Shown here: positions 5,545 through 8,500 of the stretch, piece by piece
Layout of the letters: each line of letters begins with the position of its first letter
Numbering within the stretch: position 1 is the first letter of the stretch
Virus record (IMG/VR): IMGVR_UViG_2734482537_000006
Strand: one strand, 5' to 3'
Length of the DNA stretch: 8,637 nucleotides
From: a virus
Lineage: Duplodnaviria > Heunggongvirae > Uroviricota > Caudoviricetes
Notes under the pieces: model-generated
The model's input: the letters and a program-made list of their open reading frames with translations, nothing else
The model's database searches: none
Told to the model about the DNA's origin: nothing
Position numbers and translations under genes: made by a program

Positions 5545-8500
5545 TCAACGAATACTGATGCCGGAAGCCGCTTTTTTGGTCACAATCACCGTACAGTCGG
5601 TGATATTGCCTGCCCCCTGATTGCCTTTCTGGAAAATCTTAAACTCCAGAGTGACGCTACCACCACCACTAGGCATATCAATAACTGCACTGTAACTACC
5701 GGGAATGGCACCTTTAGTTTCTCTGGATGCGATTAATACGCCGTTTTTGCGAACTTCAAAACCATAACCCGTGTATCGCGTGCCTCCTGGGTTATTTCCG
5801 CTCCCCGGATCGTCATACGCTATACCGTTAAAAATAATGGGCGGAATAATAATCTGGCGGTCAAAGTTATGATCATCGCTTATGGTGACTGTAACCGTCC
5901 CGTTTGGTGTTTCCGTGTTACCCCACGTACCAGCCTGTTTCGGAAATGATTTGGATACAGCTTTAACGAAGTCACCTCTGACCTGAGTCGCCTCCAGCAT
6001 GCCCTTAATCGTACAGTTTTCATTTACCGTGACATTGTTGAGCGTCCCGGCGTTCGCATTCACACTGCCACTGATATCCGCATTTTTAGCGGTCAGCTTT
6101 CCGTCCGGAGTCAGGGAAAATGCCGATGGATTTCCACCGCTGGTAATGGTGGGGGCCGTCAGGCGTTTCAGGAACACGTCGTTCATGAATATCTGATCGC
6201 CCTGACCAACAAACATCGGTTTTGTGTTGCCATTCGCAGGATTAACCATCGCAATCCTGTCCGCCGCCAGCAGCACCTGACTCTGCATGCCGTCAGGGGT
6301 GTTCTCAATACCGGCACCAATACCCGCGATATAAAGGCGTCCGTCCTGCATCTGCTGCAGCTTCACAGCCCACATGCTGTTCAGGTTATTATTTGTATCA
6401 ACCTGAACCTTCTGTATCTGCTGAATTGCCGCACTCTGGTCTTCCAGTTTCTTATTGACGGTCTGCGTGATTTCATTGCTGACATCCGTAATGGACGTCC
6501 TGATTTCAGCCAGGTCAGGCGCAAGCTGACCGTTATCAATCTGCGTCCACAGCTCCTGAGCCAGATGGGTTTTCCCTATCTCGCCTTTGAAAAAATCCAG
6601 ATAACCGGATGCATCATCACTCGGCTGACCAACAGCCTCCACGAATGCCGATTTGCCAACGGTGTTCACACTGCGGATATAAAAGTAATAATCATGGCCC
6701 GGTTTGATATTGATACTGGCGGCTATCCAGTACAGCGCCGTGCCAAGATAGCGTGCTGTGGTTTCAACCTGCCTGATATCCGCAATCCGCTTTTCCGAGA
6801 ACCAGAACTCAAACTGTACCGTCGGATCATAAACCGCAAGATGCGGCGTGGCGGTTATCTGAAAATAGCCCGGCGTCAGCTCAATCCGCGACAGCGCTGC
6901 CGGTGCGGCAATCCGGAACGATACCGACGCCGGATCGCCCTGCTGCCCCCACGCATTTACTGCCCGGACTGTCAGCCTGTAGTTCCCCAGCGCCAGTTGT
7001 GTGAAGCGGTAAGTGGTTTCCGTCGTCCGGGCCGTGCTGACCAGCCGCTCACTGCCGTCATCCGCTGTTACGGTCAGACGGAGCAGGAAGCTCACGCCCT
7101 TCACCACCTTCGGCGTGTCCCAGCGCGCCAGCACCTGATATTCCCCGCTGTCTGCGGTGACTTCGGCAGTCAGGTGCTGCACCGCTGGCGGCGTGACACC
7201 ATTCACCGTGCCGCTCTGGTCGCCGTCAAAGTGCGCCCCGTTATCCACGATGGCTTCTTTTTCCGGCACATGCTGCACGGCGGTGATGGCATACGTGCCG
7301 TCGTCGTTCTCACGGATACTCACGCAGCGGAACAATCGCTGGTGCAGCGTCGGCAGCTTCAGCCCCCACACGCTGTATTCAGCAACACCGTCAGGAACAC
7401 GGCTCACTTTTACCTTCACGCCGTCGGTGACGGACTGGACCTCCACGCTGACCGGATTCCCCTGCCCGTCAACCAGGCTTATCAGCGTGGTGCCGGAGGA
7501 TGGCAGCGTGATTTCACGGTCGAGCGTCAGCGTCCGGGTCTGGCTGTTCACCGCCAGCACGCGCCCGCCGGTGCGGATACCGGCATAGTCATCATCGCAG
7601 ATTTCAATGACATCGCCCGGTACATGACGAAGCCCTTCAGCACCCACGCTGAAATCCACGGTCTGCGTCTCCAGCAGTTCCGTTTTAATCAGCCACAGCC
7701 CGGCGCGGTGTGCCTGCCCCCGGCTGGTACAGCCAAAGGCATCCATCTTCGTGACGTTACGACCGTAACGGACAATGGCCTGCGTATCCTCCACAAGCTC
7801 TGTCGCCGTCTCCCAGCCGTTATCCGGGTCAATCCAGTTCACCTCAACGGCATTATGGCGGTCTTTCAGGGCGCTGAAACTGTAGCGGAACGGCGCGCCA
7901 TCATCCGGCATCACCACATTACTGCGGTTATAGGCCCACACCTTATCCGACTGTCGGTCCTGCACGAACGTCAGCGTCTGCCCGTTCCATACCGGCATAC
8001 AGCGCATCGCCGAGCAGAAATCACTGAGCACATCCCACGCCTTGCGCTGTGTGGTCAGCCAGGCATTACAGGTGATGCGCGGCTCCGTGCTGCCAAAGCC
8101 GTCCGGCACCGACTGGTCACAGTACTGGCCGATGACATACAGCGCCCATTTATCCACATCTGCCGCACCAAGACGTTTCCCCATGCCATAGCGCGGATGG
8201 GTCAGCATATCCCACAGACACCAGGCCATGTTGTTGCTGTATGCCGGTTTTAACGTTCCGTCCCAGATACCGCTGTATTGCCGCGTCTGCGGATTATAGT
8301 TCGACGGCACCTGCAGAATGCGCCCGCGAAGATGATAATTACGGCTCACCTGCTGGCTGCCGAACTGCTCCGAATCCACCTGTACGCCGACCAGTGCCGT
8401 GTTCGGGTAGCACTGTTTCACATCGATGATTTCGGTGTATGACGACCAGAGCGTTTTGTTCTGCAGCTGGTCTGTGGTGCTGTCCGGCGTCATTCTGCGC

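Follow-up and report, generated by a model that had tools for sequence, protein, structure and literature searches.

The tip attachment protein J (gpJ) of phage lambda carries an alpha-helical shaft (AHS) comprising residues 809-861, which unwinds upon binding of the receptor LamB, with a part of it turning into beta-sheet (PMC11101478). The porin that is recognized differs between lambdoid phages. The receptor of phage 434 is OmpC, and lambda supplied with the 434 fiber gene binds OmpC as well (PMC3509688, PMC11101478), the 434 central fiber having been termed OmpC-targeting (PMC12502783). Phage phi330 has been shown experimentally to need OmpC (PMC12502783), and the native receptor of phage 21 is reported in the literature to be LamB. 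Few mutations may suffice for a switch of porin, four in the case of lambda, which then uses OmpF, and reportedly a single one in the case of phi21, which then uses OmpC (PMC11336670).

Here, the J protein encoded in an 8,637-nt stretch of Caudoviricetes DNA (IMG/VR record IMGVR_UViG_2734482537_000006; the whole stretch is referred to as the window) is compared with these systems. A first-pass annotation of this DNA had described J as a mosaic with a lambda-like body, and this description holds, with the central segment and the C-terminal region each stemming from another allele. The visible protein comprises three exchangeable modules, namely a body of the lambda/434/21 type, a shaft of the phage 21 type and a tip of the phage 434 type, the last of which probably recognizes OmpC.

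The distal tail module around J

A lambda-like prophage is represented in the window by its distal tail module, which is encoded on the minus strand and shows the following features:

5545..8637, minus strand: J, tip attachment (central tail fiber) protein; 1030 codons by translation of the open reading frame, plus the stop codon at 5545-5547
4875..5474, minus strand: lom, outer-membrane protein of the Ail/Lom type (Pfam Ail_Lom, E = 2.5e-122), directly downstream of J
4643..4816, minus strand: truncated copy of the stf start, 57 codons
1414..4503, minus strand: stf, side tail fiber, 1029 aa, Pfam-confirmed
833..1414, minus strand: tail fiber assembly gene (tfa), Pfam-confirmed
1..830: AT-rich stretch

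The position of lom directly after J, with stf and tfa following on the same strand, gives the module the gene order of the lambda type, and the order J-lom-stf-tfa is also found in lambda, 434, phi458 and Escherichia coli STEC316. The last of these is the closest complete genome and has its equivalent tail module in a prophage adjoining ybhB; matched against complete E. coli genomes, the window as a whole reaches ~96% at best, in four pieces. The 5' ~405 nt of J lie beyond the window edge, and the full-length protein probably comprises 1165 aa, by analogy with phage phi458, the J gene of which (3498 nt) is collinear with that of the window at 96.5%. Residues are numbered below from the first visible one. 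The visible part aligns to lambda J residues 136-1132, with 80% over 1035 columns (BLASTP), and matches, in this order and in each case above the curated cutoff, the Pfam families FNIII-A_GpJ, Phage-tail_3, Ig_J, Ig_J_second, Phage_Tail_Tip and Ig_GpJ_C. The complete ordered domain set, the identity to lambda and the gene order all identify the protein as a tip attachment protein J of the lambda type.

Between lom and stf there is a scar, consisting of the truncated stf' and a lom fragment, and a near-perfect 313-bp tandem duplication is located downstream of J in the lom-stf region. The duplication is missing from the closest complete genome, that of E. coli STEC316, and an exact search for its junction in a species-representative collection (one genome per species) returned no match.

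Defectiveness is common among E. coli lambdoid prophages, and the J of the window might accordingly belong to a defective (cryptic) prophage and play no role in adsorption, with its allele composition having no consequence for present-day host range. That only a tail-end module is visible in the window, and that it bears a rearrangement scar between lom and stf, speaks for such a reading. It is nevertheless considered unlikely, as J, lom, stf and tfa all have intact frames with full-length Pfam matches (in the case of J, for the visible part), and J is free of frameshifts and stops through all 1030 codons in the minus-strand translation of 5545-8637.

Modules of J: body, helical shaft and linker

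Segment identities were taken from a MAFFT alignment of the window J with the J proteins of lambda (NP_040600.1), 434 (UMO75362.1/OL657227), 21 (UMO75436.1/OL657228) and phi330 (PV189401), and a DNA profile was calculated as identity in 90-nt windows. The resulting layout is as follows:

6641..8637, minus strand: backbone of the type that lambda, 434 and 21 share, comprising the hub domains and a pair of FNIII/Ig domains (aa 1-684)
6193..6640, minus strand: phage-21-type block, the long alpha-helical shaft and the top of the beta-prism fiber (aa 685-815)
6445..6537, minus strand: 28 residues of the helical shaft (four heptads, 84 nt) that have no counterpart in lambda and 434 J; common to 21 and phi330
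5983..6192, minus strand: conserved beta-prism (central straight fiber) linker of all alleles (aa 816-885, 70 residues)
5548..5982, minus strand: Ig-like receptor-binding domain, phage 434 allele, with OmpC (a trimeric porin) as the predicted receptor (aa 886-1030)

The body is near-identical to that of lambda, as had been stated in the first-pass annotation, with 661 of the first 684 visible residues shared (96.6%), and its identity to both 434 and 21 is 97.2%. On the DNA level, all three phages are matched at 90-100% throughout the backbone windows, except that the identity to 434 alone is 86-88% in two of them. Downstream of the backbone the identity to lambda falls from 90-99% to 52-68% (~6570 to ~6210) and then to 45-60% (~6030 to 5545). 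Informative sites place the switch from the backbone to the 21-type sequence at ~6640 and that from the 21-type to the lambda/434-type sequence at ~6198-6165; sites specific to phage 21 span ~6634 to ~6198, and those specific to 434 are encountered from ~6001 on, following a mixed zone at 6049-6004. The interval 5545..6700, the 3' third of the gene, to which the divergence had originally been assigned, thus correctly brackets both divergent blocks, and the two peptide stretches quoted for them are present in the J translation exactly as written. Both blocks are near-identical to those of classical phages, the shaft being of the 21 type and the tip of the 434 type.

The central segment (aa 685-815), which had been noted as divergent, shares 49 of 103 positions with lambda (47.6%), the window being longer by 28 residues, and is 48.5% identical to 434; in contrast, 128 of its 131 residues are identical in phage 21 J (97.7%), with no gaps and equal length. 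The DNA of the block is likewise 94-98% identical to 21 versus 50-68% to lambda and 434. It is therefore near-identical to the phage 21 shaft, including the 28 residues that lambda and 434 lack. In the protein alignment, the block corresponds to lambda J residues ~820-921 and thereby takes in the lambda AHS, which is helical at this position and is remodeled upon receptor binding (PMC11101478). The 28 residues appear there as lambda/434 gaps of 21 and 7 residues opposite window aa 701-721 and 725-731, and in the DNA alignment as 54 plus 30 gap columns; the complete J of phage 21 has 1160 aa versus 1132 aa in lambda. An AlphaFold2 (AF2) monomer model, which is weak overall (mean pLDDT 54.4, pTM 0.25), places helices at aa 676-686, 690-701 and 706-753. 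The last of these stands out from the otherwise poor model, with mean pLDDT values of 75, 88, 91, 86 and 65 in the successive 10-residue blocks along it, and the predicted 48-residue helix spans the 28 extra residues, the pLDDT of the whole model being 54.

The linker that follows the shaft is 79-90% identical to lambda, 434, 21 and phi330 (85.7% in the case of lambda), and its columns are near-invariant in 19-29 database homologues with differing shafts and tips. From this pattern of conservation, the linker is likely to be the crossover site at which shafts and tips are reassorted, and the mosaic would most likely owe its origin to homologous recombination within the conserved sequences, linker and body, on either side of the variable blocks. 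Module exchange at the tip, proposed in the first-pass annotation, agrees with the database homologues, which combine shafts and tips freely: the 21-type shaft is found paired with an A8-type, a 434-type or a further type of tip, and the lambda-type shaft is found paired with a 434-type tip. In this way, body, helical shaft and tip make J an assembly of at least three blocks that are exchanged independently of one another and are joined via the conserved beta-prism linker. This modularity has already been put to use in engineered lambda particles, which were retargeted to OmpC by deliberate swapping of the tip (bioRxiv 10.1101/2022.09.30.509847).

The particular combination seen in the window is widespread. 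All 3093 nt of the visible J are collinear, as a single BLAST piece at 95-96.5%, with at least 15 phage records (13 distinct phages), including phi458, ev099, cdtI, Kati, PhiR34_1, PhiR68_2, ev243, Ayreon, phiSTEC1575-Stx2k and mEp332, and several of the carriers are propagated phage isolates. The combination is also present in RefSeq complete chromosomes. The tip as such is found at 95% or higher amino acid identity in 72 phage records, and its DNA, over at least 80% of the length, in 2084 of 5426 complete E. coli genomes. Given this distribution, the J of the window is not a noteworthy recombinant; it is a member of an already known and very common J allele class that combines a phage 21 shaft with a phage 434 tip.

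The same data bear on whether the mosaic could be an assembly artefact, created by joining reads of two or three co-resident lambdoid prophages within the conserved parts of J. Several lambdoid prophages per E. coli genome are common, the median number of places in a genome that are matched by the window is 13, and the 313-bp tandem duplication, missing from STEC316 and with its junction unmatched in the species-representative collection, could be taken as a trace of such a misjoining. An artefact of this kind is nonetheless extremely improbable because the independent phage genomes (at least 15 records from 13 distinct phages, 95-96.5% over 3093 nt) are collinear across the J junctions. The occurrence of the combination in RefSeq complete chromosomes and the high identity to the respective donor types, kept on both sides of the switch zones, argue against it as well.

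The receptor-binding tip and its probable porin

The tip (aa 886-1030) shares 137 of its 145 residues with 434 J (94.5%), with no gaps, equal loop lengths and an identical stretch over the final 22 residues, and the DNA identity to 434 is 87-99% (90-nt windows, 6027 to 5545). Its identity to lambda is limited to 52 of 136 positions (38.2%), with 13 gap positions, and amounts to 41.6% for phage 21 and 43.8% for phi330/A8, with 11 gap positions. The divergence that had been noted for the last ~130 residues is thus evident over the entire aa 886-1030. At 38.2%, the C-terminal ~150 residues are clearly not the LamB-binding lambda allele, near-identity to which would mean at least 90% to lambda residues ~990-1132, and they are not near-identical to the A8/phi330/phage-21 tip allele either. 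The alignment to J homologues with known receptors, which had been suggested as a check, assigns the tip to 434 (OmpC; 94.5%) rather than to lambda (LamB; 38.2%).

In spite of this difference in allele, the fold is conserved. The Pfam family PF12421 (Ig_GpJ_C), described as 'Tip attachment protein J, C-terminal receptor binding domain', matches aa 894-1029 with 89.4 bits versus a cutoff of 26.2, and a phmmer search of the PDB with the last 199 residues detected A8 gpJ713 (5e-55) and lambda gpJ (3e-45) over the full query. For the AF2 monomer model of the tip (aa 871-1030, mean pLDDT 78.6), the top four Foldseek matches, with TM scores of 0.73-0.76, are lambda gpJ713 with LamB (8xcj) and in the closed state (8xck), and A8 gpJ713 with OmpC (9wcb) and in the closed state (9wca), the next match scoring ~0.4. 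These matches to gpJ structures lead to the conclusion that the tip is a homologous Ig-like receptor-binding domain. The prediction of the C-terminal structure, likewise suggested in the first-pass annotation, thus returned lambda and A8 gpJ as the best matches, and the proposal made there of a different C-terminal domain has to be divided: it stands with regard to the allele, which is of the 434 type, but not with regard to the fold, which is the same Ig-like one as in lambda (PF12421; 8xcj, 8xck, 9wca and 9wcb). The tip is a homologous allele of that fold and not another kind of domain.

Differences between the tip and lambda are concentrated in four segments with indels (aa ~900-912, 941-955, 972-981 and 1002-1011), two of which align with lambda J residues 1012 and 1107. 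Natural J lineages are defined by indels at these two sites, which have also been described as key host-range positions (PMC6646904). Relative to 434 there are eight substitutions (S897A, Q901K, A902V, N912D, D943N, I1001V, Q1003H and G1008W, window to 434), six of which are in or adjoin the variable, indel-bearing loop segments. Each of the eight recurs as a polymorphism in the allele family. At five of the positions the window has the majority variant, and at the remaining three it has a minority variant that is still well represented, being found in 11-13 of 31 cluster representatives.

As the tip is the 434 allele and 434 uses OmpC, OmpC is the most likely receptor, and a receptor other than LamB, as had been expected in the first-pass annotation from the divergent C-terminus, is reasonable on the same grounds (137 of 145 residues). 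Judged by the tip sequence, the J of the window is thus quite likely to recognize OmpC rather than LamB. The trimeric fiber would dock with its three receptor-binding domains on a porin trimer, most probably that of OmpC, the receptor of 434. The binding signal would then travel via the beta-prism and the helical shaft and bring about the opening of the tail tip, in the manner described for lambda gpJ. Indirect support comes from two sides. In the mEp collection of lambdoid phages, OmpC ranks second in receptor usage, behind FhuA, as related in a passage of PMC11893012 citing Hernandez-Sanchez 2008, and two phages of this collection, mEp460 and mEp332, carry the tip allele of the window. Carriers of the allele at 96-99% have been grown on K-12 strains, namely MG1655 (mEp332, PhiR34_1 and PhiR11_1), MC1061 (phi458) and K12 (Ayreon), which implies that K-12 surface proteins suffice. 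A literature search found no receptor experiment for any phage with exactly the J variant of the window, no receptor assignment for phi458, ev099, cdtI, Kati, PhiR34_1, Ayreon or mEp332, and no direct one for mEp332, mEp460, the PhiR phages, Ayreon, cdtI or Evi; the paper on the PhiR collection reports dependence on ManYZ and on the tape measure, and no outer-membrane receptor.

Three further phages or proteins were considered as guides to the receptor and rejected. Phage 21 does not qualify as an OmpC user, since LamB is given as its native receptor in the literature and the tip that it carries belongs to another allele. Phage phi330, the closest to Stx2a_WGPS6, which has the window tip, was dismissed as a proxy for that tip on account of the tip identity of 43.8%, and the OmpC-binding gpJ chimera A8 (PDB 9wca) was dismissed as a match because A8 is of the phi330 type. 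It has to be noted that the tip of phage 21 is 80.7% identical to the OmpC-binding tip of phi330 (A8 type) and that phage 21 is nevertheless reported to use LamB natively, so that similarity on the level of the family is no guarantee of a shared receptor.

The loop polymorphisms give rise to an alternative, in which the 434-like tip has been retargeted by them to another porin (LamB, OmpF, OmpN or PhoE) or to certain OmpC alleles, K-12 OmpC not being the receptor. This would be in keeping with the clustering of the eight substitutions in or beside indel-bearing loop segments, with the gpJ chimera 1A2, which recognizes OmpC of EDL933 and not that of K-12 (bioRxiv 10.1101/2022.09.30.509847; neither the preprint nor its supplement yielded a 1A2 sequence), and with the single mutations by which phi21 reportedly shifts its porin use (PMC11336670). 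Retargeting is, however, improbable in view of the 94.5% identity to 434 with identical loop lengths, the recurrence of each substitution as a family polymorphism and the propagation of 96-99% allele carriers on K-12 strains. A related and quite improbable proposal is that the tip polymorphisms (aa 897, 901, 902, 912, 942/943, 992, 1001, 1003 and 1008) act as specificity switches and that the long shaft alters the trigger threshold. Residues Q901, A902, Q1003 and G1008 of the window are replaced in 434 by K, V, H and W, and if the proposal were true, the polymorphisms could tune the fiber to another porin or to the different OmpC alleles that are found in nature, and the allele class would be a common one with a host range distinct from that of phage 434. 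With OmpC as the preferred reading, the J of the window is to be annotated as a tail tip of the 434 type that probably binds OmpC and not as a LamB-binding one, a label that helps to predict which strains can be infected and which resistance mutations would block infection.

Comparison with known J proteins

Among the classical phages, 434 provides the closest tip. Its J, the classical h434 host-range determinant, resembles that of the window in the tip (137 of 145 residues), the body (97.2%) and the gene order J-lom-stf-tfa, but differs from it in the eight tip substitutions and in the short, lambda-type shaft, which lacks 28 aa and reaches 48.5% identity over aa 685-815. Phage 21 shows the converse, with an equally long shaft (128 of 131 residues) and a body at 97.2%, whereas its tip belongs to the A8/phi330 family and is 41.6% identical to that of the window versus 80.7% to that of phi330.

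Lambda gpJ (NP_040600.1; PDB 8iyk, 8xcj and 8xck; receptor LamB) shares with the window J the domain architecture, the fold and 96.6% of aa 1-684, and presumably also the trigger, in which the signal would run from the receptor-binding domain via the beta-prism and the helical shaft to the opening of the hub (PMC11101478). It differs in the tip (38%, with loop indels) and in the shaft, which is 28 aa shorter and 48% identical. In the A8 gpJ chimera and phi330 J (PDB 9wca and 9wcb; PV189401), the Ig-like receptor-binding fold is the same, the shaft of phi330 is a long one as well, and the target, OmpC, is a trimeric general porin, as predicted for the window (PMC12502783). The tip, in contrast, is of another allele family, at 43.8% and with differing loop lengths. 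All three modules together are found in the J proteins of phi458, ev099, cdtI, Kati, PhiR34_1, Ayreon and mEp332, which are collinear with that of the window over 3093 nt at 95.5-96.5% DNA identity and differ from it by scattered point differences only, so that they effectively form one allele class with it.

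Tandem duplication at the lom–stf boundary

The boundary between lom and stf, the side tail fibre gene, carries a near-perfect tandem duplication that has left behind a truncated copy of stf (stf'):

4335-4607 and 4648-4920, spacer 4608-4647: copies of the 313-bp duplication, 272/273 identical
4643..4816: truncated stf' ORF, 57 aa

The duplicated unit takes in 46 nt from the 3' end of lom, everything between lom and stf, and the initial 168 nt of stf. The stf' ORF is joined to a short internal fragment of lom, which is itself internally deleted between two CTGGCG microhomologies. 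E. coli STEC316, the closest complete genome, lacks the duplication, and the junction had no match in a search of one genome per species. The duplication is explained either as the scar of a recent illegitimate recombination or as an artefact of assembly.

Composition of stf and of the AT-rich end

The intact stf (1414..4503, minus strand) contains a low-complexity region of approximately 350 residues rich in Ala, Ser and Thr (window ~3000-4200), where the GC content reaches 59-64%, the AT skew is strong, and the DNA gives rise to long spurious ORFs of 249-258 aa in other frames. All the Pfam matches in stf lie outside this region: a fibre domain at the N-terminus, two fibre repeats and a collar domain. 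At the low-coordinate end of the window lies another distinctive stretch:

1-830: AT-rich stretch, 29-37% GC, downstream of the tail fibre assembly gene

This stretch is without any ORF of at least 60 aa. Its STEC316 counterpart is flanked by the tail end of the prophage on one side and by an AraC-family regulator on the other, near ybhB; nt 1-83 of the window have no match there.

Shaft and tip combinations in J and the phage 21 tip

Every tested pairing of α-helical shaft and C-terminal receptor-binding tip alleles was present among natural J fragments (protein database matches P0055-P0058, P0011, P0013 and P0067), several of these database "proteins" evidently being chimeric gene calls from short contigs. 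An additional tip type, with the motif SRAPERWPSG..., occurs in P0067, P0073 and P0096, for which a receptor assignment was not found.

The tip of phage 21 was compared with that of phi330 and the phi330-type chimera A8:

1694-5176 (OL657228): phage 21 J, set against phi330 17482-20610

The receptor-binding domain of phage 21 J shares 80.7% identity with its OmpC-binding counterpart in phi330/A8 (PDB 9wcb; phi330 genetics), and only 49% with that of lambda. According to the literature, phi21 J has 94% nucleotide identity to lambda J, whereas 85% was measured for OL657228 from codon 136 onward. Yet the native receptor of phi21 is reported in the literature to be LamB; either the laboratory phi21 differs from record OL657228, or porins differ among close relatives of one tip family.
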